From an uncultured Candidatus Peribacteria bacterium (GTDB lineage: Bacteria > Patescibacteriota > Gracilibacteria > UBA1369 > 2-02-FULL-48-14), in NCBI GenBank assembly GCA_964360635.1, contig CAYHXO010000006.1:438-64437 (forward strand): a stretch of 64,000 nucleotides of DNA. Reading direction: 5' to 3'. The notes under the pieces are model-generated. The model was not told the origin of the DNA. It did not search any database and saw only the letters and a list, made by a program, of their open reading frames with translations. A program made the position numbers and the translations under genes. Shown here piece after piece: positions 20,797 to 39,940 of this stretch; positions within the stretch are counted from its first letter, which is position 1; the number at the start of each line of letters is the position of its first letter.

Positions 20797-21576
20797 CTAT
20801 TTGTAATCCGGCAAAAAAGTCCAAAAAGACTGATGGATATTTCTCAAAGATTCTGCAATGTGAGGCTCTTCAATAATAATTCCAACAATGTCTCGGTAAA
20901 TTGAAACTATAGCGACTTTGTCACCATAAATATTTATTTCGACAGGAATATGTACATTATTTAACATTTTCAAAACCCGATTTTGTTCTTTACGATGCTT
21001 ATATGCCATATCTGAAGATTCTGACTTATTTAAAATTCCAAAATATTTAATTTTCTTTTTTGCACGACGAATTGTGTAATCCCAAAGCCAATTATTAAAA
21101 TCTTTTTGATTTGATACCGGAAAAAAATATTGAAAATCACCCATGCCATATATATTTACTCCCGGAGTTTTCAATGTATCTTCATAAATTTCTTTCATAC
21201 CTTCAAGCCCCTGAAAAAAGTGAATTTTTGGCTGAGCAAGAAGAGGATTTCTAATCTTTTCAAGATCCGGCAATATGCTGAGGAGTTTTTGTTTTTGGTT
21301 TTCTATTTCTTCTTTTCGATGATCCAAAATTGAAAGAATCGACTTGGGAGGGCGCGAATTAAAATATCTAACACTTCCCTTTGTGTACTCTTGCATTATT
21401 CTTTTTTCAATCAATGTGCCTAGAATATTGTAAGAATGACTTCTTTTAAGTCCACTTTTTTTGGCTAGTATTGATGCCGGCTGAGCACCTAATTCGAGAC
21501 AAGCCAGATAAAGTTTTGCTTCGAGGTCGCTGAGACCGAACTCAGTTAAAATGGAATTAATATCGAAATCTGCCAT
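20797..21576 (-). CDS. TrmB-family transcriptional regulator (copy a), divergent from the Cys-rich paralog array
   Basis: N-terminal wHTH FGLSDLEAKLYLACLELGAQPASILAKKSGLKRSHSYNILGTLIEKRIM. Length is ~255 aa, as in TrmB-like proteins. Confidence 0.8.
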   Translation of the reverse strand: MADFDINSILTEFGLSDLEAKLYLACLELGAQPASILAKKSGLKRSHSYNILGTLIEKRIMQEYTKGSVRYFNSRPPKSILSILDHRKEEIENQKQKLLSILPDLEKIRNPLLAQPKIHFFQGLEGMKEIYEDTLKTPGVNIYGMGDFQYFFPVSNQKDFNNWLWDYTIRRAKKKIKYFGILNKSESSDMAYKHRKEQNRVLKMLNNVHIPVEINIYGDKVAIVSIYRDIVGIIIEEPHIAESLRNIHQSFWTFLPDYK

Positions 21577-21658: not shown

Positions 21659-21688
21659 TTGACATGAACTACATAATCAATATATTAT
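21659..21688 (+). promoter_or_regulatory. Putative promoter for the RHH gene and the paralog array
   Basis: TTGACA (21659-21664), then TATATT/TATTAT (21681-21688) after 16-18 nt. The TATGCATA palindrome and an ATCTAT...ATAGAC near-dyad lie just downstream. Confidence 0.4.
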
Positions 21689-21716: not shown

Positions 21717-21875
21717 ATGCCCATTGTGAACTTTTCAATTCCAAAAAATCTTGATCTGCGAATTCAAGCAACAATTAAAGAAAAAGGCTTTGCTAGTAAG
21801 GCAGAATTTTTCCGTTACTGTGCTGTCCGCTATATTGACAGTGACAAAGATAGAAAGAATAATCTAGCAGGATGA
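21717..21875 (+). CDS. Small ribbon-helix-helix (CopG/Arc-like) protein, 52 aa; below the ORF-track cutoff
   Basis: Hand translation gives MPIVNFSIPKNLDLRIQATIKEKGFASKAEFFRYCAVRYIDSDKDRKNNLAG. The beta-strand (VNFSIP), helix, then GF-SKAEFFRY-helix arrangement is the RHH pattern. The ORF ends 13 nt before paralog 1. Confidence 0.55.
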   Translation: MPIVNFSIPKNLDLRIQATIKEKGFASKAEFFRYCAVRYIDSDKDRKNNLAG

Positions 21876-21888
21876 TCTCCCCAAACGG

Positions 21889-23478
21889 ATGATAAAAAAC
21901 TGCAAGAATTGCTCGGCTGAGTTTGAAATAACAAATGATGATTTGGATTTTTATGGGAAAATAAAAGTTCCTGAACCGACATTTTGTCCAGATTGTCGAT
22001 TACAGAGGAGATTGATGATGAGAAATGAAAAAAATCTTTATAAAAGGAGCTGTGATTTTTGTAAAAAATCCATAATTGCTTTTTTTGATTCAGATGTTAA
22101 CTTTCCGGTTTATTGTACTGATTGTTGGTGGAGTGATAAATGGGACCCTAGATCTTATGGACAAGATTTTAATTTCAATAGGCCATTTTTTGAGCAATTT
22201 AAAGAGTTAATAAATAAGGTTCCAAAAGCTAACCTACTTCAGCTTAATAATGAGAATTCTGAATATAATTCACTACTGGCATTTTCAAAAAATACATATA
22301 TGAGTCCAGGCTCATATTTATGTGAAGGATGTATTTATGTTAGAAAGAGTCAAAGCTGTAAAGACTGCATTAACAGCAATATAATTAATAAATGTGAACT
22401 TGTATCTAACTCTGTTAATTGTGATTCCTGTTATAGTTCGGACTATCTTTTAAACTGCCGTTCATGTTCATTCTCCTCATACTTGGATGATTGTTCAAAT
22501 ATGCAAAATTCGTTTATGTGCAGTGGAGTAAGAAATAAAAATTATTGTTTCAAAAATAAAGAATTAACTAAAGAAGAATTCGAGAAAATTCTTGCAGAAT
22601 ATAAAATGAAAAACCATGAAGATATATTTTCTGAATTTATGGGGTTCTCTTCATCCCTACCAAAACGTGCAGTAGTTCAATTTAATTGTGAAAATTCGAC
22701 TGGTGATTACTTGTATAACTCAAAAAATGCAGTCGAATGTTTTGATTCTTTTGATATTTTAGATTCAAAATATTTGGTTGAATGTTCGGGAATAAAAGAC
22801 TCAATGGATCTGTGCATGCATGATAAAGAAATTGAACTTTGCTATGAAATGAGTTCTGGTGGCGAAAAAAATTATATGTCTAAATTTTGCTATTGTTCAA
22901 TTGCCGCACCTTTTGGGGAATATTTATATTCATGTTTTTATTTATCAAATAGTTTTGGTTGCGATGGTTTTCATTCAAAAAATGAATACTGTATTTTGAA
23001 TAAACAGTATTCAAAAGAAGGGTACGAAGTTCTAGTCGCACGGGTTATTGAATATATGAAAACGGCTGGTGAATATGGTGAGTTTTTTCCTAATTTCATT
23101 TCAACATTTGCATATAATGAAAGTGCGGCTCAAGATTATTTCCCTCTAAGTAAAGAAGAAATCATATCGAAGGGATATGTATGGAAAGAAGCCGAGACTG
23201 CCAAAGCTCCAAGTGAAATCGCAGCCTTGGATTGTATAGTATGCAAAAAACAGTATCGAGTTATTAAACAAGAACAGGCACTTTACGACAAACTTAATTT
23301 AAAAATTCCAAAAAGATGCAGTGAATGTAGATATAAAGAACTATTAAAATGGAAAAATCCTCGAAAACTATGGACTCGTGCATGTGCAAAATGTGGAAAT
23401 AAAATCCACAGCAGCTATTCCCCGGAGCGAGCTGAGATTGTATACTGTGAAGCGTGCTATTTGGCTTCTGTATACTAA
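21889..23478 (+). CDS. Cys-rich multi-zinc-ribbon repeat protein, paralog 1 of 6 (unknown family)
   Basis: 529 aa with 38 Cys by my count. There are four terminal CxxC...CxxC ribbons and a duplicated Cys-ladder core. Shared family blocks include WWSDKWD, YCILNKQYSKE, GEYGEFFP and VYCEACYL. Confidence 0.85.
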   Translation: MIKNCKNCSAEFEITNDDLDFYGKIKVPEPTFCPDCRLQRRLMMRNEKNLYKRSCDFCKKSIIAFFDSDVNFPVYCTDCWWSDKWDPRSYGQDFNFNRPFFEQFKELINKVPKANLLQLNNENSEYNSLLAFSKNTYMSPGSYLCEGCIYVRKSQSCKDCINSNIINKCELVSNSVNCDSCYSSDYLLNCRSCSFSSYLDDCSNMQNSFMCSGVRNKNYCFKNKELTKEEFEKILAEYKMKNHEDIFSEFMGFSSSLPKRAVVQFNCENSTGDYLYNSKNAVECFDSFDILDSKYLVECSGIKDSMDLCMHDKEIELCYEMSSGGEKNYMSKFCYCSIAAPFGEYLYSCFYLSNSFGCDGFHSKNEYCILNKQYSKEGYEVLVARVIEYMKTAGEYGEFFPNFISTFAYNESAAQDYFPLSKEEIISKGYVWKEAETAKAPSEIAALDCIVCKKQYRVIKQEQALYDKLNLKIPKRCSECRYKELLKWKNPRKLWTRACAKCGNKIHSSYSPERAEIVYCEACYLASVY

Positions 23479-25101
23479 ATGTTAAATTGTAAAAAATGCG
23501 GACAAAACTTTGAACTTGAAGCCGAAGATTTTGAATTTTTAAAAAAGTTTGATGTTCCGGCGCCGACTCACTGCCCGGATTGCAGGAATCAAAGACGATT
23601 GGTTTTTCGAAATGACAGGAATTTTTACAAACGCGAATGTGATATGTGCAAGAAGATAATTATTTCGATTTATTCCGTGGACAGGCCATTCCCCGTCTAC
23701 TGCAAAGATTGTTTTTTAAGTGACAAATTCAATCCGCTCGATTACGGGAAAGATTTCAATTTCGACAAACCTTTTTTCGAACAATTTGAAGATATGAGAT
23801 CTAAAGTTCCTCGAATAGCGATTTATCAGACGCTTTGCGAAAACTCCGATTACATAGTGCATAGCGGAAAAAGTAAGAATTGTTACATGGGCAGTTCAAT
23901 GCGAGGTTGTGAAGATGTTTACTACTCGGATTTCGCACAAGTCAGCAGGGATTCACTCGATCTCTACATGTGCTCGCATATGGAAGAGTGCTATTTCTGC
24001 ACCGATTCAGACCAATGTTATCATTCATCGTATCTGGAGAATTGCCTAAGTTTAAATTTTTCCTATTTATGTTTTGACTGTCGCGCTTCCAATAATTTGA
24101 TCGGTTGCGTTGGACTTAGAAGAAAAGAATTTATGATTTTAAATCAGCCGTCGAATCAAAAAGATTTTGAGGAGACTTTAAAAAAATTAAATAATGATGC
24201 TGAGTTTAAGTGTGACTTTTTAGAAAAATTTGCGAAATTGAGACTCGAGATTCCGGTTAAATATTTTTGGGAGAAAAATTCTGAAAATTCTACCGGAAAT
24301 TATGTAGTTAATTCAAAAAATGCACGCGATTGTTATAATGTTTGGAATGTTGAAGACGGCAAATATATTTATGACAGTATGGACATGAAAGATTGCCTTG
24401 ATTCCACACGAATTGCAGGAGGAGAGATGCTTTATGAAACAAATGGTGGAATCGATCTGACTTTTAGCAAATTTTCCAATCTTTGTTACCAATGCAGTAA
24501 CATGGAATATTGCGACAATTCACAAAGTTCACATGATTGTTTCGGGTGCATGAGTTTAAAATCAAATCGTTTTTGCATTTTGAACAAACAATATAGCGAG
24601 GAAGAATGGAGAAAGCTCGCTACGCTCGTTATAGAACATATGAAAAAAACCGGTGAATATGGCGAATATTTCCCGGCGGGAATTACAGTTTTTGGATACA
24701 ATGAAACAAAGGCTTTTGACCACTTCCCACTTTCAAAAATAGAGGCAATTGCAAAAGGTTTTAAATGGAAGGATGTAGATTTGCGTCAATATTTACCGCA
24801 AACATATAAACTTACAAATGAAATAAATGATGATGTTTTAAATGAAATTTTGGCATGTTCATTATGCTCTAAAAACTACAAAATCATTCCGCAAGAATTA
24901 AAGTTCTATCGAAAAATGGGCCTTCCCATACCTGTTAAATGCTTTGAATGTAGGCATAAGGAGCGTCTGTCATATGAAAATCCACGAAAACTTTGGGATA
25001 GAAATTGTATGAAGTGTGGTGTCACGATTCAAACTACATATGCACCCGAATGTAGTGAAAAGGTGTATTGTGAGAAATGTTATTTAGCTGAAGTTCAATG
25101 A
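23479..25101 (+). CDS. Cys-rich multi-zinc-ribbon repeat protein, paralog 2 of 6
   Basis: 540 aa, homologous end to end with paralog 1. The ATG directly abuts the paralog 1 TAA. Confidence 0.85.
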   Translation: MLNCKKCGQNFELEAEDFEFLKKFDVPAPTHCPDCRNQRRLVFRNDRNFYKRECDMCKKIIISIYSVDRPFPVYCKDCFLSDKFNPLDYGKDFNFDKPFFEQFEDMRSKVPRIAIYQTLCENSDYIVHSGKSKNCYMGSSMRGCEDVYYSDFAQVSRDSLDLYMCSHMEECYFCTDSDQCYHSSYLENCLSLNFSYLCFDCRASNNLIGCVGLRRKEFMILNQPSNQKDFEETLKKLNNDAEFKCDFLEKFAKLRLEIPVKYFWEKNSENSTGNYVVNSKNARDCYNVWNVEDGKYIYDSMDMKDCLDSTRIAGGEMLYETNGGIDLTFSKFSNLCYQCSNMEYCDNSQSSHDCFGCMSLKSNRFCILNKQYSEEEWRKLATLVIEHMKKTGEYGEYFPAGITVFGYNETKAFDHFPLSKIEAIAKGFKWKDVDLRQYLPQTYKLTNEINDDVLNEILACSLCSKNYKIIPQELKFYRKMGLPIPVKCFECRHKERLSYENPRKLWDRNCMKCGVTIQTTYAPECSEKVYCEKCYLAEVQ

Positions 25102-26693
25102 TTAAAACTTGTAAAAATTGCTCGCAAAACTTTGAAATCAGGGAAGAAGATGTGGCAATTTATCAAAAATTGGATGTTCCTTATCCGAATTATTGCCCTA
25201 ACTGTAGAGCACAAAGAAGAACTTCATTTAGGAATGACTGGAATGTTTATAATAGAAAATGTGATTTGTGTAAAAAAAATATTGTGAGTGTTTATTCAAC
25301 GGATAAAAACGTAAAAGTATATTGTCAGGAATGTTATTGGAGTGACAAATGGGATGGCGGTCAATTTGCTAAAGATTTCGACTTTAACAGATCGTTTTTT
25401 GATCAAATGAAAGAATTAATTTCATCAGTTCCGCTCATTAATCTAACAATGATGAATTGTATAAACTGCGAATACAATACAAATGCGGTTAACTCAAAAG
25501 ATTGTTATTTGTCATCAAGATTGGGTGATAGCGAAGGAATTTTATATACATATTTGCCTGTGAAATCTTTGAATTGCGTTGACTGTTTCAACATAAATAC
25601 TTGCCAATATTGTTATGAATGTGTGGACTGTTGGAACTGTTATAACTCTATTTTTTGCGTTAGATGTAAAAGCACGAGTGATTCTTCTTTTTGTTTTGAG
25701 TGTATTAGTGTGAAAAATTGCTTTGGTTGTGTTGGGTTAAGAAACGTTGAATATTACTTTTTTAATCAAAAATGTACAAAAGAAGAATATGAAGAAAAAA
25801 TTAGAAATGTTGATATTTCCACACATGAAAAGCTCTTGGAAATGAAGAGAATATTTATTAAAAAGGTCAGCAAATATCCACACAGAGCTTCAGTTATTTT
25901 AAATTCAGAAAATGTCCTGGGTGACTATATTGCAGATTCAAAAAACGTATATAATTCATTCGACATCGAAAAAAGTGAAGATGTTGTTAACTCATGGGGT
26001 GTTGAATTTGCAAAGGATGTTTATGACGGATGTTTTATTTATATTGGCGAAAATGTTTACGATACAATTGGAAATTTTGATAGCCAGAATATAAGATTTT
26101 CTGCCTTCCCATATAATTGTCACGATAGTTACTACTTATTTTCTTGTTTCAATAACACCGGCAATTGCTTCGGTTGCGTTTCATTGAAACAAAAACAGTA
26201 CTGTATTTTAAATAAACAGTACACAAAAGAAGAGTATGAAGCTTTGCTTCCGCGAATTATTGAACATATGAAAAAAACCAGTGAATATGGTGAATTTTTC
26301 CCTGTTTCAATATCTCCATTTGCATATAATGAGACGGTTGCTTATGAATTTTTTCCAATGACAAAAGATGAAGTTTTAGCCTGTGGTTTAAAATGGAAAG
26401 ATTTTGAGCGAAAAAACTCATCCGGTCTAAGTGAAGATATTGTATCATGCATCCAATGTGAAAGAATTTTTAAATTAATTCCAAAAGAATTAGCCTTTTA
26501 TCGAGAGAAAAAGCTTCCAAATCCTAAAAAATGTCATATTTGCAGACATGCCGAAAGGTTAAATCAGAGAAATCCAAGACACCTTTGGACTCGAAATTGT
26601 GCTAAGTGCAAAGTCGAAATATCTACCGGCTATTCACCGGAAAGGTCGGAAACGGTATATTGTGAATCGTGTTACTTATCTGAAGTCTACTAA
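25098..26693 (+). CDS. Cys-rich multi-zinc-ribbon repeat protein, paralog 3 of 6
   Basis: 531 aa with the same blocks. It has an ATGA overlap with paralog 2. Confidence 0.85.
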   Translation: MIKTCKNCSQNFEIREEDVAIYQKLDVPYPNYCPNCRAQRRTSFRNDWNVYNRKCDLCKKNIVSVYSTDKNVKVYCQECYWSDKWDGGQFAKDFDFNRSFFDQMKELISSVPLINLTMMNCINCEYNTNAVNSKDCYLSSRLGDSEGILYTYLPVKSLNCVDCFNINTCQYCYECVDCWNCYNSIFCVRCKSTSDSSFCFECISVKNCFGCVGLRNVEYYFFNQKCTKEEYEEKIRNVDISTHEKLLEMKRIFIKKVSKYPHRASVILNSENVLGDYIADSKNVYNSFDIEKSEDVVNSWGVEFAKDVYDGCFIYIGENVYDTIGNFDSQNIRFSAFPYNCHDSYYLFSCFNNTGNCFGCVSLKQKQYCILNKQYTKEEYEALLPRIIEHMKKTSEYGEFFPVSISPFAYNETVAYEFFPMTKDEVLACGLKWKDFERKNSSGLSEDIVSCIQCERIFKLIPKELAFYREKKLPNPKKCHICRHAERLNQRNPRHLWTRNCAKCKVEISTGYSPERSETVYCESCYLSEVY

Positions 26694-28345
26694 TGCCTGA
26701 TATTAAACAGAACTGCCGAACTTGCTCAAAAGAATTCGTTGTGAATGAATGGGAACAAGCACATTTGCAAAAAATGGGTGGTTTTCCACTGCCAACTTTG
26801 TGTATAGATCACAGACATCAAAGAAGATTTGCCTATAGAAATGAGAGGAAATTATATAAAGATAAATGTGATTTTAGCGGAAAAGATATTATTTCAATTT
26901 ATTCGCCGGATAAAAATTTGAAAGTTTATTCCCAAGAAATTTGGTGGAGTGACAAATGGGATGGACGCGATTACGGAAGAGATTTTGACTTTAGTAGGCC
27001 ATTTTTTGATCAATTTCAAGAGCTAAGATTGTCGACTCCAAGAATGTCTCTTTTGAATTCAAATGGTGAAAATAGCGAATATTGCAATCTAACAACTGAT
27101 AATAAAAACTGCTATTTAGTTTTTGGGGGAGATTTTAATCAAGATGCTCTTTATTCAATATTTTGTTTTTATTCAAGAGATGTTGCGGATCTTTATTGGG
27201 TGAATAAATCGGAACTTATTTATGACTCAATTGATTGTTCGAATTGCTACAATATTAAGCATGCACAAAATACTTATAACTGTCGTGATGGGGCATTTTT
27301 ATTTGATTGTCGAAACTGTGAATATTGTATTGGATGTGTTGGTTTACGCGGTAAAAAATATCATATTTTCAACAAAGCATATTCGCCGGAAGATTATGCA
27401 AAAAAAATGCATGAATTAAGGTTAGATACTTGGAGCGGAGTACAAAAATTTAAAGTGGAGTTTAATAAATTTAAATTGAATTTTCCAATGCTTTTTGCAA
27501 GTATTGTGAATTGTGAAAACTGCAGTGGTGATAAAATTAAAGATGCTAAAAATTGTGAGAACTGCTTTGATATTTATGGCCCTGTTGAAGACTGTAAAGA
27601 TGTATTCTTAGGAGGCTGGAATTTAAAAGATGCTCTTAGCTCTAGTCACATTGGTCATAAATCAGAAATAGCATATGAATCAATTGGGATTCCCGGAGTT
27701 CACACAACTGCTTTTTCGTCATTTGTATGGTTTGGAAGCAATGTTTACTATTCAGATACAGTTGCTTATTGTAATAATATTTTTGGTTGTTCGAATATGA
27801 ATAAAGCCGAATATTGCATTTTGAACAAACAATACAGTAAAGAAGATTATGAAAGTTTACGTGCAAGAATTGTGGAGCATATGAAAAAAACCGGTGAATG
27901 GGGTGAGTTTATGCCAATCAAAAATTCTCTTTTTGCATACAATGAAACCGTTGCTCAAGATTTCTTTCCTAAAAGCAAGGATGAAGCTTTTTCCGAAGGC
28001 ATTAAATGGCTTGATGAAGAAGTTCGTGAGATAAAACCTCAAGATATTCCAGACTCAATTCACGATGCAAAAGATGATATTTTACAAGGAACATTCATAT
28101 GTGAAAAAACCGGAAGACCCTATCGGATTGTTCCTGCGGAATTAAAATTATATCGACAAATGGGAATCCCAATCCCTCATTTTGCTCCTGAAACTCGGAA
28201 TGAAATGCGCATTCAAGCTAGAAATCCTCATCATACCTGGTCAAGAAATTGCACAAAGTGTGGAATGAAGATTGAAACTAGTTATGCTCCTAATCGGCCA
28301 GAAAATGTATACTGTGAGCCTTGTTATTTGGCTGAGGTTTACTGA
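26693..28345 (+). CDS. Cys-rich multi-zinc-ribbon repeat protein, paralog 4 of 6 (degenerate N-terminal and third ribbons)
   Basis: 550 aa with a TAATG overlap with paralog 3. Ribbon 2 reads CDFSGK...VYSQEI instead of CDxCKK...VYCxxC. Confidence 0.85.
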   Translation: MPDIKQNCRTCSKEFVVNEWEQAHLQKMGGFPLPTLCIDHRHQRRFAYRNERKLYKDKCDFSGKDIISIYSPDKNLKVYSQEIWWSDKWDGRDYGRDFDFSRPFFDQFQELRLSTPRMSLLNSNGENSEYCNLTTDNKNCYLVFGGDFNQDALYSIFCFYSRDVADLYWVNKSELIYDSIDCSNCYNIKHAQNTYNCRDGAFLFDCRNCEYCIGCVGLRGKKYHIFNKAYSPEDYAKKMHELRLDTWSGVQKFKVEFNKFKLNFPMLFASIVNCENCSGDKIKDAKNCENCFDIYGPVEDCKDVFLGGWNLKDALSSSHIGHKSEIAYESIGIPGVHTTAFSSFVWFGSNVYYSDTVAYCNNIFGCSNMNKAEYCILNKQYSKEDYESLRARIVEHMKKTGEWGEFMPIKNSLFAYNETVAQDFFPKSKDEAFSEGIKWLDEEVREIKPQDIPDSIHDAKDDILQGTFICEKTGRPYRIVPAELKLYRQMGIPIPHFAPETRNEMRIQARNPHHTWSRNCTKCGMKIETSYAPNRPENVYCEPCYLAEVY

Positions 28346-29097
28346 GCCACGAAGGAAGTTGCGCCGAGCCAAGAAAGATCGAAAATTGCCTTTTGAGTGC
28401 GTGCATAAACAGCCGATTCGATTAAAACGCCGGTTAGTTCATCTGGATTGAGAGACATTATTGCAACAAAATTATCGTAAATTGAAATTTGGTTTTCAAA
28501 GGCAAATTCATTTGGATTCACGAAAAGAATTTCTACAAGTTCTTCCGGATATTTTTTTGGATAAAAGTTTTCAACAAAGTATCTGGCCTCCTTTGTTGAA
28601 GGGGTAAGTAGCCTGACTTTTATACCTTTCCTAACCAATTTCTGAAGATATCCTGGTAAATAATCTGGGAGTAAATTTCCGAGTGCTTCTAAATTTGTAT
28701 ATCCTAAAACATCTGATTTTGCTTCGAGAGTTTGTTCAAAAATAGTTTTAATTCCATCAATTCCCTCGTAAGAACGGATGATTGGTTTGAAGGCACTTGT
28801 ATTTGTTAGTGAAATTAATTCAGGTAAAAGTGATTTGGCTTTTTCAAATTTTTCTTCAATTTGATTCACGAGAACTTGTGGAGGTTCTGCAACAAAAAAT
28901 TTAACATTACCTTTCAAATTGGTCGTTATAAGTCCCTTATTTTTTAATGTATCAAGAATGTAATAACAGTTTACACGAGCTGTATTAGACTTTCTTGCAA
29001 TGGTACTGGCAAAAGATCCACCTAATTCCAATACAGTTATGTAAACTTGAGCTTCTTCTTTTGAAAGACCGAATTGTTCAAGCTGATTTACGAGCAT
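28339..29097 (-). CDS. TrmB-family transcriptional regulator (copy b), inside the array
   Basis: FGLSKEEAQVYITVLELGGSFASTIARKSNTARVNCYYILDTLKNKGLI. The gene is tail-to-tail with paralog 4 (7-nt overlap) and divergent from paralog 5. Confidence 0.8.
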   Translation of the reverse strand: MLVNQLEQFGLSKEEAQVYITVLELGGSFASTIARKSNTARVNCYYILDTLKNKGLITTNLKGNVKFFVAEPPQVLVNQIEEKFEKAKSLLPELISLTNTSAFKPIIRSYEGIDGIKTIFEQTLEAKSDVLGYTNLEALGNLLPDYLPGYLQKLVRKGIKVRLLTPSTKEARYFVENFYPKKYPEELVEILFVNPNEFAFENQISIYDNFVAIMSLNPDELTGVLIESAVYARTQKAIFDLSWLGATSFVAQ

Positions 29098-29193
29098 GTT
29101 GTAAGAATATTTCTACAAGAAATATACCCTGTTAAATGGCGGATTACAAGCTTATATTATGTACTTTTTTACAAGCTATGATAAAGTTTAAGC

Positions 29194-30846
29194 ATGGAAA
29201 TCAATAAAACATGTACATCGTGCGGCAAAAGTTTTGTAGTTAACGAACTAGACCAAAAATTTTATGAAAAAATGGTGGTTCCAATGCCAACATTATGTCC
29301 TGATGAAAGGGCAAAACGTAGGTTAGCATTCAGAAATGAAAAACACCTTTATCACAGGAAATGTGATTTAAGCGGGAAAAGTATTATTTCAAATTATTCC
29401 ATAGATAAAGTTAACAAAGTTTACGATCAGAAAGAGTGGTGGAGTGATAAATGGAGTGCAATGGATTATGGGCGTGATTTTGATTTTAATCGTTCATTTT
29501 TCGAACAATATTCTGAGCTTCAAAAAGAAGTGCCTCGCTTGAATTTGCTAAGTATAAATAATGAAAATAGTGATTACACAAATTGTGTTTCAAATTTGAA
29601 AAATTGTTACTTACTTTTTTCGTCCGATTTTAGTCAAGATTGTTATTACGGCGATTGGGTACAAAATTCAAAGAATTGCGTGGATAATTATTTAATAGTT
29701 AGAAGTGAATTGGCATACGAATGTTTCTATTCACAGAGCATTTACAGAGGTATTTATATCTTTAATTCATCAAATTGTACTGATAGCGCCTTTTTATATG
29801 ACTGTCGCGGCTGCAATGATTGTTTCATGTCATACGGCTTAAGAAATAAAAAATATTGCATCGAGAATAAGGAATATTCAAAAGAAGAGTATGAGAAATT
29901 GATGAAAGAAATTAAGATTAGTTCTAATGCGAATTTTTCAAAATTAAAGCAGAAGTTCTTTGAAATTATCAAAAATCATCCTCGACTTTACATGCAAAAA
30001 ATGGGGAGAGTTGAATCTTCAACGGGTGATCTTTTTATGGATAGTGAGAATTGTCTTGAATCATTTGAAGTTGTGAAAGGAAAAGACTGCAAGTTTGTAC
30101 AATCCGGATTTGAAATTAAGGATATTTATGATTCTTCTTATGTAAATGGCGAGCTGGGTTATGAAAACTGCGAATGTTTTCCAATGCCATATAATTCCGC
30201 CTTTAATGTAAACACATATACCGGCCAAAATCTTTTCTATACAGATAGTTGTATGAGCAATTGCTCAGATTGTTTTGGATGTATAAGTCTTCGCGCAAAT
30301 AAGTACTGTATTTTAAATAAACAATACACAAAAGAGGAATATGAAAATATGAAAGCTCGGATTATTGAGTATATGAAAAAAACCGGTGAATGGGGGGAGT
30401 TCTTCCCTATCGAACTTTCACCTTTTGGATACAATGAAACAAACGCTCAAGAGTTTTTCCCAATCACAAAAGAAGATGCTTTGAGTGAAAAATATAAGTG
30501 GAAGGAGGAAGATGAAAATTCGAGTTATTCAGGGCCTTATGTAAATATTCCGGATGATATTAAAGATGTGGATTCTGAAATTACGAAGCAGATTTTGAAA
30601 TGCGAAATTAGTGGAAAACTTTATAAAATAATTCCTCAGGAGTTAGAATGTTATAAAACTATGGGCATTCCAATTCCAAGGTGTTCGCCCGAACAAAGAT
30701 GGAAAGATAGATTTTCAAAGCAAAATCCTAGAACACTTTGGGATAGAAAATGTGAGAATTGTTCAAAAGGAATTAAAAGCACTTATTCTCCGGATAGACC
30801 TGAAAAAGTTTATTGTGAGGTGTGCTATTTAAAAATAGTCTATTAA
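29194..30846 (+). CDS. Cys-rich multi-zinc-ribbon repeat protein, paralog 5 of 6
   Basis: 550 aa with the same family blocks. The N-terminal ribbons are degenerate (CPDE, CDLSGK). Confidence 0.85.
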   Translation: MEINKTCTSCGKSFVVNELDQKFYEKMVVPMPTLCPDERAKRRLAFRNEKHLYHRKCDLSGKSIISNYSIDKVNKVYDQKEWWSDKWSAMDYGRDFDFNRSFFEQYSELQKEVPRLNLLSINNENSDYTNCVSNLKNCYLLFSSDFSQDCYYGDWVQNSKNCVDNYLIVRSELAYECFYSQSIYRGIYIFNSSNCTDSAFLYDCRGCNDCFMSYGLRNKKYCIENKEYSKEEYEKLMKEIKISSNANFSKLKQKFFEIIKNHPRLYMQKMGRVESSTGDLFMDSENCLESFEVVKGKDCKFVQSGFEIKDIYDSSYVNGELGYENCECFPMPYNSAFNVNTYTGQNLFYTDSCMSNCSDCFGCISLRANKYCILNKQYTKEEYENMKARIIEYMKKTGEWGEFFPIELSPFGYNETNAQEFFPITKEDALSEKYKWKEEDENSSYSGPYVNIPDDIKDVDSEITKQILKCEISGKLYKIIPQELECYKTMGIPIPRCSPEQRWKDRFSKQNPRTLWDRKCENCSKGIKSTYSPDRPEKVYCEVCYLKIVY

Positions 30847-32513
30847 TGACTGTGATTACTAAAACATGTCGGGTTAGTGGAAAAGAATTCATTGTCACAG
30901 ATGAAGATCAGCAGTTTTATGAAAAAATGGGAGTGCCGTTGCCAACTTTATGTCCCGAAGAACGAATGCGACGTAGATTGGCTTTTCGAAATGAAAGGAA
31001 TCTTTATCATAGAAAATGTGATTTAAGCGGAAAAGAGTTGATTTCAAATTTTTCACCTGATAAACCTAATAAAGTTTATGACCAAAAAGACTGGTGGAGT
31101 GATAAATGGGATGCACTTTCGTATGGAATGGACTTTGATTTTACCCGGCCTTTTTTTGACCAATTTGAGGAACTATTAAAAAAAGTTCCACTCCCACATG
31201 TCGTTGGCTCAATTGATATTGAGGAAAGCAATTGTAGATATACCAATTATGCTGGTGATAACAAAAATTGTTATTTAATTTTTGACTCAGATTTTAATGA
31301 AGATTGTCAGTATGGTGAAGTAATTAAACATTCAAAATCTTGCTTGGATTCTTCCTATTTGAAAAGCTGTGAATTGATGTATGGATGCCTAGATTGTCAT
31401 AGTTGTTATAATTTAAAATACTCACAAGATTGTACAAATAGTTTTGATTCTTTTTTTCTAAAAAATTGCATTTCGTGTAAGAATTGTTTTGGATGTGTTG
31501 GTCTTGTACAAAAAGAATACTACATTTTCAATAAGCCATTTAGCAGAGAGGAATATCAGAATTTTCTTAAAAAGTTCGTAGCAGGCAAAAGGAGTGCAGT
31601 ATTAGATATGCAGAAAAAATTTGAAGAATTCTCAACTTGTTTCCCAGTTAAATATTTCCATGGGATACAAATCGAAAATTCCGATGGTGATTATTTAAGC
31701 AATGTAAAAGATGTCCATAATTGTTTTGATGTAGGAAATTCTAGAGATCTGCATTATTGCGACTCACTATACACCGCAAATGACTGCATGGATGTTTCTT
31801 CATTTGGAGAGAAAATTGAACTCGTTTATGAATCAGGAACAGTTGGCATTAATTGTACAAACATTAAATTCTGCCATGGAATTGTAAACAATTGTTCCGA
31901 TATAAATTATTCAATGTACTGTAGATCATCACAAAATCTTTTCGGATGTGTGGGAATAAAAAGGGGTAATTATACTATTCTTAACAAGAAATATACGAAA
32001 GAAGAGTATGAATTTTTATTACCACGAGTTATAGAACATATGAAGAAAACAGGCGAATTGGGCGAGTATTTCCCAATGAAATTATCTCCGTATTGTTATA
32101 ATGAATGTATGTCACAGGAATATTTTCCAATTACTAAAGAAGAAACTTTAAAGTTGGGTTTAAAGTGGTTTGAACCTGAAACTCAAAGCCATTATCAAGG
32201 TCAAAAAATAGTGACTCCAGAAAATATCATAGATGTGGATGAATCGATTTTAAAACAAATTCTTACATGTAATAACTGTACAAAAAATTATAAAATAAAT
32301 AAAATGGAGCTGGATTTTTATAAAAATATGGGAATTCCTGTGCCGCAAATTTGCTCACATTGCAGGTATAAAGTGAGAATGAAACAAAAAAATCCTAGAC
32401 AATTATTAGAAAGGAACTGTAGCAATTGTTCAAAAGATATCCAAACTACATACTCAAATGAACGAGTTGAGAAAGTTTATTGTGAAGAGTGTTATTTAAA
32501 GCATGTTTACTAA
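30846..32513 (+). CDS. Cys-rich multi-zinc-ribbon repeat protein, paralog 6 of 6
   Basis: The start was moved to the ATG at 30846 (MTVITKTCRVSGKEF). This aligns with the other N-termini and gives the same TAATG junction seen between paralogs 3 and 4. Length is ~555 aa. Confidence 0.8.
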   Translation: MTVITKTCRVSGKEFIVTDEDQQFYEKMGVPLPTLCPEERMRRRLAFRNERNLYHRKCDLSGKELISNFSPDKPNKVYDQKDWWSDKWDALSYGMDFDFTRPFFDQFEELLKKVPLPHVVGSIDIEESNCRYTNYAGDNKNCYLIFDSDFNEDCQYGEVIKHSKSCLDSSYLKSCELMYGCLDCHSCYNLKYSQDCTNSFDSFFLKNCISCKNCFGCVGLVQKEYYIFNKPFSREEYQNFLKKFVAGKRSAVLDMQKKFEEFSTCFPVKYFHGIQIENSDGDYLSNVKDVHNCFDVGNSRDLHYCDSLYTANDCMDVSSFGEKIELVYESGTVGINCTNIKFCHGIVNNCSDINYSMYCRSSQNLFGCVGIKRGNYTILNKKYTKEEYEFLLPRVIEHMKKTGELGEYFPMKLSPYCYNECMSQEYFPITKEETLKLGLKWFEPETQSHYQGQKIVTPENIIDVDESILKQILTCNNCTKNYKINKMELDFYKNMGIPVPQICSHCRYKVRMKQKNPRQLLERNCSNCSKDIQTTYSNERVEKVYCEECYLKHVY

Positions 32514-32848
32514 AACATCAACGCCATTTGGATTTTGATTCTTTTCATTATTGTTTCATCTAGATTTGAGACGTGTTTTTGTATTCTAATTTTATCGATA
32601 GTTCTAATTTGAAATAAAAGAGCGACACTATCAAAATTTAGCTTTGAAATTCTTTTGTCTATAAAATATGTAGTGATGTGACCTTTTGCAGTGAGATTTT
32701 TTGTTAATGGAGCAACTATGACGGTGTTTAGATTTTTATTTAAAATATCATTTTGAAGAATTAGAATCGGTCGACAACCTGATTGTTCATGGACTTTAAC
32801 AGGGTCAAGATTTGCGAGATAAATTCCGGCTTGTTTAATTTCAATCAT
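32510..32848 (-). CDS. mazF: PemK/MazF-family toxin
   Basis: 112 aa. GIYLANLDPVKVHEQSGCRPILILQND...VIVAPLT is the PemK/MazF core pattern. Confidence 0.8.
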   Translation of the reverse strand: MIEIKQAGIYLANLDPVKVHEQSGCRPILILQNDILNKNLNTVIVAPLTKNLTAKGHITTYFIDKRISKLNFDSVALLFQIRTIDKIRIQKHVSNLDETIMKRIKIQMALMF

Positions 32849-33068
32849 TTTTTGGCATTATTGCTAACCATTCATCTTCACTAGGAAGATCATCGAATTT
32901 TATTTTTGAAAGTGCCTTAGCATCTTTTTCAAGTTGAGTGTTGAGCAAATCTTTAATTGCATGTTCAATTAATGAGCTTTTACTTACACCTGATGTTTCT
33001 GTGAGATTATCTAACATTTCGTTTATGACAGGGTTAATTGTAATGGAGATACGGGTTTTACTTTGCAT
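32841..33068 (-). CDS. Ribbon-helix-helix antitoxin (MazE/CopG-like) paired with the MazF-like toxin
   Basis: 75 aa. RISITINPVINEMLDNLTETSGVSKSSLIEHAIKDLL fits the RHH pattern. It overlaps the toxin gene by 8 nt. Confidence 0.7.
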   Translation of the reverse strand: MQSKTRISITINPVINEMLDNLTETSGVSKSSLIEHAIKDLLNTQLEKDAKALSKIKFDDLPSEDEWLAIMPKND

Positions 33069-33220: not shown

Positions 33221-35464
33221 ATGGATTTTTTACATGTAATAGTCCCACAGGGAACGGCTGAAAATCCGAAAAAAGAAGGACTTTTCCTTCAGTTTTTGCA
33301 GAATCTACATAAAACGGCACATCATAAACATTTGTCGTTTGAACTTTTTGGTTATAATCAATACACATATTTTTTTATTGGTTGCGAGCCGGATATTACA
33401 AAACTTGTAGAGGGTTTGATTTATTCAAGCTACCCGGATGCAGAAATTAGACCTGTAAAAGACTATACAACTGTCTATGATCCCAAAAAACATGTTTTGC
33501 TGGGAACTAGCGCAAAGTTTGCAATGAGCGATATTTATCCCTTCAAAGCTTACGATGAATTTGAGGTGGATTCCCTATCTTCGATTTTTTCAGTAATTTC
33601 GAAATTGGGAAGAAATGATCATGCTTGGGTACAAATTTTGACGGTACCGATTGATGAAGATTGGAAGTATCATTTTTTGAGAAAATTCAGAATGCGACTT
33701 AATAGATTTTTGCGAAGATTCCGTTTGAAGAATTATGTTCGAATGAAAGAAAAATCAGAATATTACAAAGAAGAAGAGGCACTTTTTATTCATAAATCAG
33801 AGCATGAACCATTTAAAGTTCAAATTCGATTTGGAGCAGTGTCTGACAAAGAAGATGAAGCACAGAAAAATTTATTAGCGCTTTCGAAGGCATTTTTTCA
33901 GTTTAATAAAACAGATGCAAATCATTTTGAATTGGAAAAAGTTAAAAAGGGCGCTGCATTTTTGCGTGAATATCAAAGTAGACATATTGATAACGGCGCG
34001 ATTGTTAGCGATCATGAATTGGCTACATTTTTCCATATTCCGAATGCAGATCACGTTCCACACGTTGTGCATGTGATGGCAAAAAAACATGAGCCACCAA
34101 AAGATTTACCAACCGGCGGCCCGGATGTTTGTATGTTTGGAATGACAAATTACCATAATAATTTTCAGCACTTTGGAATTAAACGTGATGATAGACGAAG
34201 GCATCTTTATCTTGTTGGAAAGAGCGGAACCGGTAAATCAAAAATGCTTGAGCTTTTGATTCAGGCAGATATAAATGCCGGGAAAGGTATTGGTGTTTTA
34301 GACCCGCACGGTGATCTTGTGGATAACATTTTGCGAATGATTCCTGAATCAAGAATGAAGGATGTAATTTTGTTCGATCCTTCTGATACTGAGTTCCCTA
34401 TCGCATTTAATCCGCTCGAAAAAGTTGATGAAAAATTCAAGATGCAAATCACAATTGGTTTCATTGATATTTTCAAAAAACTATTCGGCGGAAACTGGTC
34501 TGATCGTTTGGAACACGTTTTGCGATATACAACTTTAGCGCTTTTAGATTCCCCGAACACAACGGTACTTTCAATTTTGAAAATGCTTTCTGATAAAAAT
34601 TACCGTCAGAAAATTGTGGCAAGAATTGAAGATTCAGTGGTGAAAAATTTCTGGGTGAATGAATTTGCTGGATGGAGCGAGAAGTTTGATAGCGAGGCGA
34701 TTACTCCACTTTTGAATAAAGTTGGACAGTTGGTTTCAACAAATATGATTCGAAATATTATCGGTCAGCCGGTGAATACTTTCAATATTCGAGACATAAT
34801 GGACAATAAAAAAATCCTCTTAATGAAAGTCTCAAAAGGGCTTCTTGGAGAGGAAAATTCACAGTTAGTTGGAGCAATGATTATCACGAAAATTTATCAA
34901 GCAGCAATGGCTAGAGCAGACATGCGAGAAGACGATAGAAGTGATTTTTATTTCTATGTGGATGAGTTCCAAAACTTTGCAACAAATACATTTTCTGAGA
35001 TTTTATCTGAAGCGCGAAAATACAGATTGAACATGACTATTGCTCACCAATATATTGGACAGCTTTCAGACCTCGTTAGAAAAACAGTTTTTGGTAACGT
35101 TGGTACAATTGTAAACTTTCGTGTTGGTGCGGAAGATGCGGTGATTTTGGCAGAAGAATACACTCCGATTTTCAATGTTCGAGATATTATTAATCTTGGA
35201 GTTCGAGAATTTTATACAAAAATGTCCGTACAAGGTGAACTTTCAGAAGCTTTTTCAGGCCGAACTTTAGATATCAAATATAACCCTGTTGATAAGACTC
35301 GTGAAATTATTGATATTTCTCGTGCTGCTTATTGCCACCCTCGTGAAGAGGTTGAAGAAATGTTGAAAAAATGGGATGAAGGAAAAATTGAAGAACCCGG
35401 TGCTATTGCTCCAAAGAACGATGTTATTGAAGAAGCCGCGGAGTTTGAGATGCCTTTGATTTAA
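33221..35464 (+). CDS. TraD/VirD4-like (FtsK/HerA-superfamily) P-loop NTPase, no TM segment
   Basis: Walker A is LVGKSGTGKSK and Walker B is FYFYVDEFQNFAT. EARKYRLNMTIAHQYIGQL resembles coupling-protein C-terminal motifs. The ~300-aa N-terminal domain is unrecognised. Confidence 0.7.
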   Translation: MDFLHVIVPQGTAENPKKEGLFLQFLQNLHKTAHHKHLSFELFGYNQYTYFFIGCEPDITKLVEGLIYSSYPDAEIRPVKDYTTVYDPKKHVLLGTSAKFAMSDIYPFKAYDEFEVDSLSSIFSVISKLGRNDHAWVQILTVPIDEDWKYHFLRKFRMRLNRFLRRFRLKNYVRMKEKSEYYKEEEALFIHKSEHEPFKVQIRFGAVSDKEDEAQKNLLALSKAFFQFNKTDANHFELEKVKKGAAFLREYQSRHIDNGAIVSDHELATFFHIPNADHVPHVVHVMAKKHEPPKDLPTGGPDVCMFGMTNYHNNFQHFGIKRDDRRRHLYLVGKSGTGKSKMLELLIQADINAGKGIGVLDPHGDLVDNILRMIPESRMKDVILFDPSDTEFPIAFNPLEKVDEKFKMQITIGFIDIFKKLFGGNWSDRLEHVLRYTTLALLDSPNTTVLSILKMLSDKNYRQKIVARIEDSVVKNFWVNEFAGWSEKFDSEAITPLLNKVGQLVSTNMIRNIIGQPVNTFNIRDIMDNKKILLMKVSKGLLGEENSQLVGAMIITKIYQAAMARADMREDDRSDFYFYVDEFQNFATNTFSEILSEARKYRLNMTIAHQYIGQLSDLVRKTVFGNVGTIVNFRVGAEDAVILAEEYTPIFNVRDIINLGVREFYTKMSVQGELSEAFSGRTLDIKYNPVDKTREIIDISRAAYCHPREEVEEMLKKWDEGKIEEPGAIAPKNDVIEEAAEFEMPLI

Positions 35465-38830: not shown

Positions 38831-39940
38831 TTAAGTCAGAATCTGGCTCAACTTCTTCGTCTTAATCGCCTCTTTAATTTCGATTGCGATTCTTTCACCG
38901 TAGCTCATTGGTTCGCCCCAGAGATAACTTGTGTAAGGTGTGAATTTTGTTCCTGGAGAACCTGGAATTCGCATTGAGACGTCGAAAATTACTAATTCTT
39001 CTCGGCCATTTTCAGAGGCAACGGCGCCTTGTAATGCGAAAGGACCGATTATGCCGGGCTTTGAGTGTTTCTGTGTGGCTGCAACGAATCTCTCACCAAT
39101 TTCATAGGCTTTTTCTACAAGTGATTCTTTGATTGTTACTGCGAAGTGACCGGTTTCAATCATGGTTGGGTTGTAGCCTGAGTTTAAAAGTTCTGATTGA
39201 ACATTTGAGTTTAGGCGAAGAAATCCATCAAGACTAGTTTGGCGTCGAGCATCAGTTCCCATTAATTCGAGTCGTTTTGAAAGTGGGGAATAGAAAAAGT
39301 TGAAGTTCACTTGAGCGCCAATTATGAATTCTTCGATTACTGCTTTTTCTAGCCCGGCTTTTGTGATTTGACCTTTTTTGATCATAGCAGATGATTTTTC
39401 TTCATAGTCTTTTTGGCTCACTGCAACAAAGAATGCGCGTTCGTAAGAACGAGTTGCTTCATTAACTTTCACAATGACAGGACGGTCAATTTTTGATGGA
39501 GAACTTATCATTTTTGGTATTCTTATTCCGGCTTGTTCAAGCAACCAGTACTGATTTTTTTCAACATCACGTTCTTCAAGACGAACCATATGACGAGTGC
39601 CGAAAATTGGAATTTCGAAGTTTTTTTCGATCTGGTCAAAGTCGCAATAAACCCAAAAATAACGATTGTGAATGAAAATTACATTTCGTTTTTTTAGTTC
39701 TTTTTGGACTTCTGGTTTTGTAATATCAGAAAATTTGTCTACTAAAATTACTTCATCAATGCAGCCTAGGCCATCACGAGTTTTGTAATATTCCGCGTAA
39801 GTTTTTTCACGACCTTTTTGGCAAACAGCGAGAGTTTTGAAGCCATGTTTTTTTGCTCCGGCGCAAACGTCTAGTGCGCTGTGACCTCCGAGAACTGCAA
39901 TTGTCACGTCCTTTGGAGTGATTTTATTGTTTGTTTTCAT
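38831..39940 (-). CDS. purP: PurP-family ATP-grasp enzyme (5-formaminoimidazole-4-carboxamide ribonucleotide synthetase-like), paralog 2
   Basis: 369 aa. VTIAVLGGHSALDVCAGAKKHGF, IFIHNRYFWVY and GPFALQG...LVIFDVSMRIPG are present. It is collinear with the adjacent paralog. Confidence 0.75.
   Translation of the reverse strand: MKTNNKITPKDVTIAVLGGHSALDVCAGAKKHGFKTLAVCQKGREKTYAEYYKTRDGLGCIDEVILVDKFSDITKPEVQKELKKRNVIFIHNRYFWVYCDFDQIEKNFEIPIFGTRHMVRLEERDVEKNQYWLLEQAGIRIPKMISSPSKIDRPVIVKVNEATRSYERAFFVAVSQKDYEEKSSAMIKKGQITKAGLEKAVIEEFIIGAQVNFNFFYSPLSKRLELMGTDARRQTSLDGFLRLNSNVQSELLNSGYNPTMIETGHFAVTIKESLVEKAYEIGERFVAATQKHSKPGIIGPFALQGAVASENGREELVIFDVSMRIPGSPGTKFTPYTSYLWGEPMSYGERIAIEIKEAIKTKKLSQILT

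Follow-up and report, generated by a model that had tools for sequence, protein, structure and literature searches.

A 64,000-nt stretch of contig CAYHXO010000006.1 from an uncultured Candidatus Peribacteria bacterium (the window, in whose positions all coordinates are given) carries a tandem array of six full-length paralogous open reading frames (ORFs) of 529–555 aa, within 21889–32513 on the + strand. They are referred to as copies 1–6 (c1–c6) or, by their order in the array, as W1–W6 (W4 is copy 4 and W6 is copy 6). Each protein has four small cysteine fingers. We consider it probable that these genes are tandem paralogs of a large family of candidate phyla radiation (CPR) bacteria, in which fingers 1–3 are lost recurrently and in a stereotyped way, partly in parallel, under strong purifying selection. 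The ancestral protein evidently had four Cys4 sites, and the zinc sites of fingers 1–3 appear to be dispensable, having been converted repeatedly, module by module and lineage by lineage. A first-pass annotation of the same DNA had instead proposed one ancient split between copies 1–3, with all sites complete, and copies 4–6, with degenerate sites.

The proteins consist of fingers 1 and 2, an acidic Cys-rich β-solenoid, and fingers 3 and 4. Finger 1 is a zf_Tbcl-like CxxC-x24-CxxC module, and finger 2 has the spacing CxxC-x17-CxxC. Fingers 1 and 3 match zf_Tbcl (PF13451), and fingers 2 and 4 match zf_Tbcl_2 (PF23477)/TIGR04272. Scores for PF13451, with a gathering threshold of 24 bits, are 24.1 for copy 1, 24.6 for copy 5 and 17–18 for copies 2, 4 and 6, with no match in copy 3. 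Those for PF23477 (14.5–21.2) are below its curated cut-off of 27 bits, as are those for TIGR04272 (14–17.2, cut-off 36 bits; no match in copy 5). These profiles, weak as their scores are, describe the modules as treble-clef-type fingers, and the earlier label of "ribbons" was therefore dropped. The four Cys required by zf_Tbcl are present in fingers 1 and 3 of copies 1–3 and in finger 3 of copy 6; they are incomplete in finger 1 of copies 4–6 and in finger 3 of copies 4 and 5. The CxxC-x17-CxxC spacing occurs in finger 4 of all six copies (C499, C502, C520 and C523 in copy 1) and in finger 2 of copies 1–3 (C55, C58, C76 and C79). The C-terminal pair of fingers is homologous to the N-terminal pair, as seen from secondary BLAST high-scoring segment pairs and from the module consensus. 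The finger regions are mildly basic, the core is acidic, and each protein contains 27–40 Cys.

The central ~350 residues have no Pfam match. An AlphaFold2 (AF2) model of copy 5, built from a 150-sequence alignment, has a predicted local distance difference test score (pLDDT) of 89 and a predicted TM-score (pTM) of 0.90. It contains two small N-terminal fingers, two strand ladders at residues ~130–225 and ~269–375, each closed by a helix, and a helical linker followed by the two C-terminal fingers. A model of copy 1 based on the six paralogs alone was poor (pLDDT 54) and was not used. Every copy contains an internal DNA repeat, spaced ~450 nt apart, that encodes C[FI]GC.GL...Y.I.NK.YSKEEYE (Table 1). 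These repeats indicate that the central β-solenoid is a tandem duplication of two halves, the two strand ladders.

Ligand states were read from a six-way alignment, from which the 16 ligand columns were extracted column-wise (Table 1). The residues at these columns match the Cys-loss pattern first reported for copies 4–6 exactly, with several differences in how it should be read. Finger 3 of copy 5, previously described as half lost, is lost, since the Cys of its RCSPEQR segment lies one residue before the ligand column and is absent from the orthologue R4 (RRSPEQR). The stepwise erosion described for finger 1 holds for the residues; however, the CCCH of copy 4 is a legitimate zinc ligand set, which its closest orthologues, A3 and C3, also carry. 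Finger 2 was said to be lost in the same way in copies 4–6. This is true of the first knuckle, where C-x-x-[ST]-G-K is common to all three, but the second knuckles differ, reading VYSQEI in copy 4 (typically VYSQEA in its clade) and VYDQKE and VYDQKD in copies 5 and 6.

To place these losses in the family, we used a GTDB sample of 78 loci with 287 gene copies, in which arrays reach 12 copies. Four, three, two and one intact sites are found in 64, 76, 88 and 18 proteins of these loci, respectively, and a sample of 50%-identity representatives gives the same continuum of one to four sites. The two classes of the first-pass annotation, ribbon-complete and degenerate, are thus replaced by a graded series. 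Within a single finger, loss appears to be all-or-none: finger 2 keeps four Cys in 157 sequences, one in 183, none in 11 and two in 3, and three Cys are not found in any. Such bimodal counts per finger, across hundreds of homologues, indicate that the pattern is not due to chance. Intermediates are rare, since the collapse of a site, once begun, appears to go to completion. Ranked by apparent dispensability, the modules stand as finger 2 > finger 3 > finger 1 >> finger 4. Finger 1 is lost mainly where finger 2 is already gone (26 of 31). Finger 4, which had been called invariant, is indeed intact in all six copies and in 344 of 353 and 245 of 246 homologues, the losses numbering 9 and 1. One G6-type gene (C5 of L002, 17700–19337; groups are defined below) lacks 17 residues including the first knuckle of finger 4 (pattern --CC), and may represent a damaged copy or an assembly problem.

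The replacement residues follow a pattern of their own. In degenerate modules, ligand 1 is still Cys in 94–98% and ligand 2 has become Thr or Ser in 78–98%. The residue after ligand 2 is Gly in 77–92%, compared with 19–53% of intact modules, and is followed by Lys or Arg. Ligands 3 and 4 change to Ser, Asp, Glu, Ala, Thr or Gln; in degenerate finger 1, 82% retain Cys at ligand 3 and 85% carry Glu at ligand 4. The Cxx[ST]G replacement is found in all four modules. As each module has its own place in the protein, this is evidence, independent of any tree, that one solution arose in parallel at least four times.

The retention of ligand 1, and of Cys and Glu at ligands 3 and 4 of degenerate finger 1, could also be read as remodelling of the sites. 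The CCCH set of copy 4 and the Cys-Thr/Ser-Cys-Glu set in finger 1 of copies 5 and 6 might then bind a labile or catalytic metal, or the lone Cys of Cxx[ST] might serve as a redox or sensing thiol. Conservation of CCCH in the closest orthologues of copy 4 is in keeping with this idea, as are substitution rates in degenerate modules that are as low as those in intact ones (see below). Motifs of the CxxS and CxxT type, derived from CxxC, are found in thiol oxidoreductases. However, finger 2 keeps a single Cys, and its ligands 3 and 4 vary by clade (Ser/Asp/Glu/Ala and Ala/Glu/Val/Tyr), a variability that packing fits better than a defined site. We regard remodelled sites as unlikely.

Neighbour-joining (NJ) trees of the whole protein and of the finger-free core were constructed from 355 sequences. 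Deep nodes of the whole-family trees have supports of only 0–40%, and we therefore compared groups by quartets of group-mean distances (core domain only, 200 bootstraps, three distance corrections) and by profile-profile scores. Copy 1 belongs to group G1 (112 members, 100% support), copy 4 to G4 (106 members, 92%) and copy 5 to G5 (68 members, 97%), while copy 6 falls in G6, a looser remainder group. Within G5, 20 proteins are fully intact and 16 lack finger 2 only; within G4, finger 2 is intact in 19 proteins. The intact finger 2 modules of G4 carry clade-specific flanks (KD before ligand 1 and Q after ligand 3), which argues against their import by recombination. Copy 6, its sister and their next relative (supports 100% and 77%) display three different combinations of lost fingers. 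Fitch parsimony on the 355-sequence tree gives 12–19 state changes per finger for fingers 1–3, and 3–7 disjoint clades with at least 80% support contain both finger states. The intact members within G4 and G5, together with the varied combinations near copy 6, suggest that the losses in copies 4, 5 and 6 are largely parallel and took place in three old lineages that still hold intact-finger members. The differing second knuckles of finger 2, in copy 4 as against copies 5 and 6, agree with parallel loss.

The first-pass annotation had placed copy 4 with copies 5 and 6, and in one respect this stands: its core is nearer to those of copies 5 and 6 than to those of copies 1 and 2. The quartet G1G2|G4G5 is recovered in 181–184 of 200 bootstraps and G1G2|G4G6 in 155–169. 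Profile scores from hhalign are 866 for G4-G5, 1037 for G4-G6 and 1026 for G5-G6, versus 735 for G4-G1 and 628 for G4-G2; G1, G2 and G3 are mutually dissimilar (382–525). What does not stand is a clade of copies 4–6 that excludes copy 3. The split {1,2,3}|{4,5,6} is recovered in 39–49 of 200 bootstraps, and G1G4|G3G6 in 124–140, such that copy 3, with all its sites intact, tends to group with G6.

These results bear directly on the proposal of a single ancient split, in which ribbon-complete (1–3) and ribbon-degenerate (4–6) subfamilies separated before local duplication and the ligand losses are shared derived characters. The affinity of the copy 4 core and the C-x-x-[ST]-G-K common to all degenerate finger 2 modules are what such a split would predict. 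They are outweighed by the poor recovery of the split between G1–G3 and G4–G6, by the intact members of G5 and G4, by the continuum of site numbers, by the different second knuckle of finger 2 in the copy 4 clade, and by the appearance of C-x-x-[ST]-G in four different modules, which marks it as a convergent solution. The proposal is already largely contradicted, and we find it improbable. Because the all-Cys condition is the ancestral state, it cannot define a clade, and ligand state in general does not appear to define clades. Two sequence markers put forward for copies 4–6 fail in the same manner: PTLC is the most frequent state in all clades, that of copy 1 among them, and the Trp of GEWGEF, a majority state in G4–G6, is present in 34% of G1. 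Both are majority states across the family and not shared derived characters.

Genes of the family are found in tandem arrays of 2–12 copies, usually near divergent TrmB-like regulators and often near a VirD4/TrwB-like ATPase, and nearly every array mixes finger states. The two forms do not always occur together: of the 39 arrays that have three or more complete copies, 22 combine fully intact and degenerate forms, 17 consist of degenerate forms alone, and none consists of intact forms alone. The absence of intact-only arrays, and the adjacency of paralogs with and without Cys ligands under separate regulators, would suit a zinc-sparing swap by analogy with the C+/C− ribosomal paralogs (PMC5912738, PMC6094098, PMC3087516). 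Low-zinc copies, especially copies 5 and 6 if controlled by the second TrmB-like regulator (TrmB2), would be expressed at zinc scarcity and replace the four-zinc copies. However, translation of copy 4, which has one or two zinc sites, is apparently coupled to that of the four-zinc copy 3 within one sub-operon, the regulators are TrmB-like and not Zur or Fur, 17 of the 39 arrays have nothing but degenerate forms, and the states form a continuum instead of C+/C− pairs. A swap of this kind is rather doubtful.

The arrays themselves differ among close relatives. The genomic slot between a GlmU-like nucleotidyltransferase and the ATPase contains different sets of copies in related genomes (3 in L080, 4 in L083, 3+2 in both L001 and L002, and 4+2 in the window), as would be produced by birth-and-death turnover. 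In L080, the flanks are 93–95% identical to the window at the nucleotide level; copies 1, 3, 5 and 6 are absent, and an unrelated paralog is present in the slot. The copy-2-type gene of L080 (6782–8473, compared with 23496–25151 of the window) has 68% nucleotide identity and saturated dS. Such a gene between highly similar flanks points to replacement of the allele, or to differential loss among old paralogs, and not to fast protein evolution alone. TrmB2 and copies 5 and 6 are absent from this locus, where a 161-nt match (83%; L080 12165–12325, window 28340–28500) to the 3′ end of the TrmB2 gene overlaps the start of a DUF1003 gene. The match resembles a scar left when a cassette was lost or rearranged.

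Orthology varies from copy to copy. Orthologues of copy 1 are 72–78% identical in L001, L083 and L002. Those of copy 2 (63–72%) are found only in close relatives, and the 50% cluster library contains no close representative of it (best match 46%). Copy 3 is an orphan with no orthologue in the four closest loci; its nearest collected relatives are G6-type proteins with 41–46% identity. The closest orthologues of copy 4 are 75–91% identical with an unchanged ligand pattern, and the nearest relative of copy 6, P0196, is 61% identical. TrmB2 is 29% identical to TrmB1, the regulator gene divergent from the first sub-operon, and L001 and L002 have orthologues of it at the equivalent place with 79–80% identity. 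Cassettes made up of a divergent TrmB-like gene and 1–6 copies occur in 37 of 84 loci, sometimes three or four times per array. The second TrmB gene, for which later insertion or retention had been suggested, is thus better described as an old component of a cassette than as a late insertion.

Tandem arrays with conserved termini would also be a suitable substrate for recombination or gene conversion, which could shuffle the N- and C-terminal finger pairs among paralogs and make repeated point-mutational loss unnecessary. Counts under a loss-only model (21–46) are far above the parsimony counts, implying that intact forms are nested among degenerate ones. In addition, finger 4 of copy 4 (28235–28345) shows 70% amino acid identity to that of A3, compared with 91% for the whole protein, and this divergence may mark a local recombination tract. 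Yet errors in the NJ trees can explain the nesting, the intact finger 2 modules of G4 carry the flanks of their own clade, and a comparison of DNA repeats gave no sign of recent gene conversion among the six copies, with no stretch above ~82% identity and those that reach it being short. Shuffling seems highly unlikely as the source of the pattern.

Selection on the degenerate copies was assessed from ratios of nonsynonymous to synonymous substitution rates (dN/dS), computed against orthologues by the method of Nei and Gojobori (NG86). Since dS is saturated for most pairs (72–82% identity), usable ratios come from W4-A3, B3-C3 and some modules. For W4-A3, dN/dS is 0.084 overall (dS 0.65), with 0.06 for finger 1, 0.03 for finger 2, 0.145 for finger 3 and 0.06 for the core; the overall value for B3-C3 is 0.054. 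Degenerate modules have values of 0.03–0.16, compared with 0.03–0.19 in the intact modules of copy 1 and copy 2 orthologues. G4 orthologues in many genomes share 55–64% identity and a length of 549–551 aa. The earlier suggestion that copies 4–6 retain a function is well supported by these per-module ratios. The view that copies 4–6 are decaying duplicates under relaxed selection, to which the loss of conserved Cys ligands alone lends any weight, is ruled out by the NG86 ratios and scarcely credible for full-length ORFs with widespread orthologues of conserved length and a high-confidence AF2 model.

In the interpretation we favor, recurrent loss of fingers 1–3 under purifying selection, the fingers would be structural or interaction modules. 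Hydrogen-bond, salt-bridge or packing interactions in the degenerate modules would replace the metal and so preserve both the fold and the binding surface; the new contacts could be provided by the Thr/Ser-Gly-Lys knuckle and by an acidic or polar second knuckle. Zinc demand per protein would drop from four ions to one or two, and finger 4 would carry the function that requires a metal. The co-translated paralogs probably act jointly, perhaps by forming a hetero-oligomer or by serving the neighboring ATPase as alternative adaptors. The arrays appear to evolve by birth and death, the unit being one divergent TrmB-like regulator with 1–6 translationally coupled copies.

Several points count against this interpretation. 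The metal-free state of the degenerate modules is deduced from sequence, and both the CCCH of copy 4 and the Cys-x-Cys-Glu of degenerate finger 1 may yet coordinate a metal. The alignment used for the AF2 model mixes intact and degenerate forms, so the predicted structure is not independent evidence of a kept fold. The NJ trees have weak deep nodes, and tree error raises the number of independent losses, inflating the loss-only counts in particular. Long-branch attraction of G1 and G2 may account in part for the grouping of G4 with G5 and G6. The hetero-oligomer and the link to the ATPase are suggested by gene neighborhood.

A bolder reading, which we advance tentatively and do not think likely, is that of an undescribed Patescibacteria-specific system in which fingers switch between a Cys4-zinc form and a metal-free or remodelled Cxx[ST]G[KR] form, with paralogs in different finger states acting as adaptors or substrates of the ATPase. 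The switch would have been reached independently in four modules and in dozens of lineages, and arrays with TrmB cassettes and the VirD4-like ATPase might have a part in host interaction, in translocation of DNA or protein, or in defence.

Table 1. Features of the array and its surroundings (positions in the window; ligands are listed in order 1–4 for each finger)
Feature	Position	Strand	Remarks
TrmB-like regulator 1	20797–21576	−	PF01978 33.3 bits (cut-off 25.6); divergent from first sub-operon
Sigma-70-like promoter match, best of the region	21659–21688	+	TTGACA-16/18-TATATT/TATTAT, 11/12 matches; consensus match only
52-aa ORF heading first sub-operon	21717–21875	+	ORF search; sequence MPIVNFSIPKNLDLRIQATIKEKGFASKAEFFRYCAVRYI...
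Copy 1 (529 aa), lineage G1	21889–23478	+	All four fingers CCCC
Copy 2 (540 aa)	23479–25101	+	All four fingers CCCC; start abuts copy 1 stop (TAAATG)
Copy 3 (531 aa)	25098–26693	+	All four fingers CCCC; ATGA overlap with copy 2
Copy 4 (550 aa), lineage G4	26693–28345	+	Last gene of first sub-operon
Copy 4 finger 1	26714–26812	+	CCCH
Copy 4 finger 2	26867–26941	+	C-S-S-I
Copy 4 finger 3	28100–28195	+	C-T-A-T
Copy 4 finger 4	28250–28324	+	CCCC
TrmB-like regulator 2	28339–29097	−	PF01978 49.2 bits (cut-off 25.6); between copies 4 and 5
Copy 5 (550 aa), lineage G5	29194–30846	+	Orthologue R4 79% identical
Copy 5 finger 1	29212–29307	+	CCCE
Copy 5 finger 2	29362–29436	+	C-S-D-E
Copy 5 finger 3	30601–30696	+	C-S-(S)-Q
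Copy 5 finger 4	30751–30825	+	CCCC
Copy 6 (555 aa from ATG at 30846), group G6	30846–32513	+	TAATG overlap with copy 5
Copy 6 finger 1	30867–30962	+	C-S-C-E
Copy 6 finger 2	31017–31091	+	C-S-D-D
Copy 6 finger 3	32268–32363	+	CCCC
Copy 6 finger 4	32418–32492	+	CCCC
Internal repeat pairs	22533/22977, 25742/26189, 27324/27777, 29844/30294, 31483/31936		
MazF/PemK-like toxin (112 aa) and RHH antitoxin (75 aa)	32510–33068	−	Toxin PF02452, E = 8e-26
VirD4/TrwB/TraG-like ATPase (747 aa), closing the array	33221–35464	+	Profile matches PF02534, PF10412, PF12696

Within the locus, copies 1–4 and copies 5–6 abut or overlap, with junctions TAAATG, ATGA and TAATG in the first set and TAATG in the second. 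Junctions of this type are a signature of translational coupling, which is predicted here for both sets. TrmB-like regulator 1 has orthologues of 99% identity in L080 and 91% in L083. The 3′ end of TrmB-like regulator 2 overlaps that of copy 4, and the gene is divergent from copies 5–6. The best sigma-70-like promoter match of the region sits upstream of the first sub-operon, just before the 52-aa ORF; the total number of promoter-like matches across the region is not above that in shuffled sequences. A 52-aa gene is called at the equivalent position in L080–L083. The product of this ORF has no Pfam match and is probably a ribbon-helix-helix (RHH) protein, judging by its sequence pattern.

The MazF/RHH pair separates copy 6 from the ATPase in the window only and is absent from this place in L001, L002, L080 and L083. 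The ATPase scores above the gathering thresholds of PF02534 (39.2 vs 20.1 bits), PF10412 (29.4 vs 20.5) and PF12696 (23.7 vs 22), and has an N-terminal DUF8128, as seen in relatives. A VirD4-like ATPase adjoins arrays of the family in 27 of 84 loci, and its recurrence at array ends points to an undescribed functional link. The anti-phage defence profiles of PADLOC gave no match for copies 1, 4 and 5; only the ATPase matches one, the generic HerA-like "mad8" model. Further downstream, two neighboring genes (38831–40965, − strand) of the DUF1246/DUF1297 family, the archaeal-type PurP-like ATP-grasp family, lie beside PurH (41010–42572); the pair is kept in L080 and L083.

The family is very large, uncharacterized and, by these searches, found mainly in Patescibacteria. 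Three separate searches each gave in excess of 6000–7900 homologues. Those with a named source are all patescibacterial (Peregrinibacteria/Peribacteria, Gracilibacteria, Abawacabacteria, Kerfeldbacteria and others), and their annotations read hypothetical or "zinc-ribbon domain containing". An exhaustive HMMER scan gave 3584 clusters at 50% identity, and tblastn confirmed at least 587 matches among GTDB species-representative genomes, the closest of which, L002, is an uncultured Peribacteria genome. The locus was found in groundwater and drinking-water DNA metagenomes only, and no RNA-seq runs holding it were found. A literature search with the Pfam/TIGR accessions and for Patescibacteria treble-clef or zinc-ribbon proteins found nothing relevant. 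Some members are on contigs labelled Nitrospirota, Micrarchaeota, Gammaproteobacteria or Bdellovibrionota (L003, L043, L048; P0336; P0281), which are probably mis-binned CPR contigs. The annotation of P0281 as "Epidermal growth factor receptor" is spurious and due to its Cys-rich repeats. Genetic code 25 (UGA = Gly) was tried on all loci and was not needed.

The domains of these proteins resemble known families to a limited extent. The Cys spacing of the fingers is that of zf_Tbcl, zf_Tbcl_2 and TIGR04272, while most scores are below the curated cut-offs. In a sequence-profile search of the PDB, LIM-domain halves were matched by finger 4 only, which aligns with the second half of the LIM domains of CRP1, CRP2 and MLP (C-x2-C-x17-C-x2-C, "...YC..CY", E = 0.002–0.07). 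This is a marginal half-domain match in a bacterial protein from a different context, without the tandem C2HC+C4 arrangement, and the LIM profile PF00412 scores 14–14.6 against a cut-off of 22.9, over profile positions 22–58 only. Foldseek found no significant structural neighbor in the PDB or BFVD. The best, though insignificant, neighbors of the central domain are left-handed β-helix proteins (LpxD, GlmU and γ-carbonic anhydrase), with E ≥ 0.3 (best 0.34) and TM-scores of 0.09–0.12. Copies 1–6 have no match to the Hexapep Pfam family, and unlike a hexapeptide β-helix, the paralogs have a repeat spacing of ~9 residues with Cys/Ser ladders; the domain is not a member of that class. Both regulators resemble the TrmB family in scoring above the PF01978 cut-off and in lying divergently upstream of the gene sets that they would control, but they differ from the characterized sugar-sensing TrmB/TrmBL1, for which full-length scores are 25–40 against cut-offs of 600–650.

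The closest parallel to the loss of ligands is provided by the ribosomal proteins L31, L33, L36, S14, S18 and S4, which have zinc-binding (C+) and zinc-free (C−) paralogs (PMC5912738, PMC6094098, PMC3087516). As in that system, the paralogs described here differ by the Cys ligands of structural zinc sites and both forms occur in one genome; and just as the zinc-free ribosomal form is functional and under selection, the ligand-poor copies are under purifying selection. Unlike the ribosomal proteins, members of this family have four sites each, lost independently to give mosaics with one to four sites, and the losses recur many times with the stereotyped Cxx[ST]G. The copies are also tandem and partly co-translated, with TrmB-like regulators in place of Zur. 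The phenomenon is thus a multi-site, recurrent variant of the known C+/C− theme, in modular form and in a highly expanded CPR family. The Cxx[ST]G replacement offers a concrete, testable rule for how a treble-clef finger could dispense with its metal, and the near-inviolability of finger 4 marks it as the one site of likely functional importance. The TrmB cassettes, the coupling, the VirD4-like ATPase and the fast turnover of copies provide a handle on the role of the family in organisms with very small genomes, and the phenomenon would gain in interest if the arrays prove to be a dedicated system with the ATPase.

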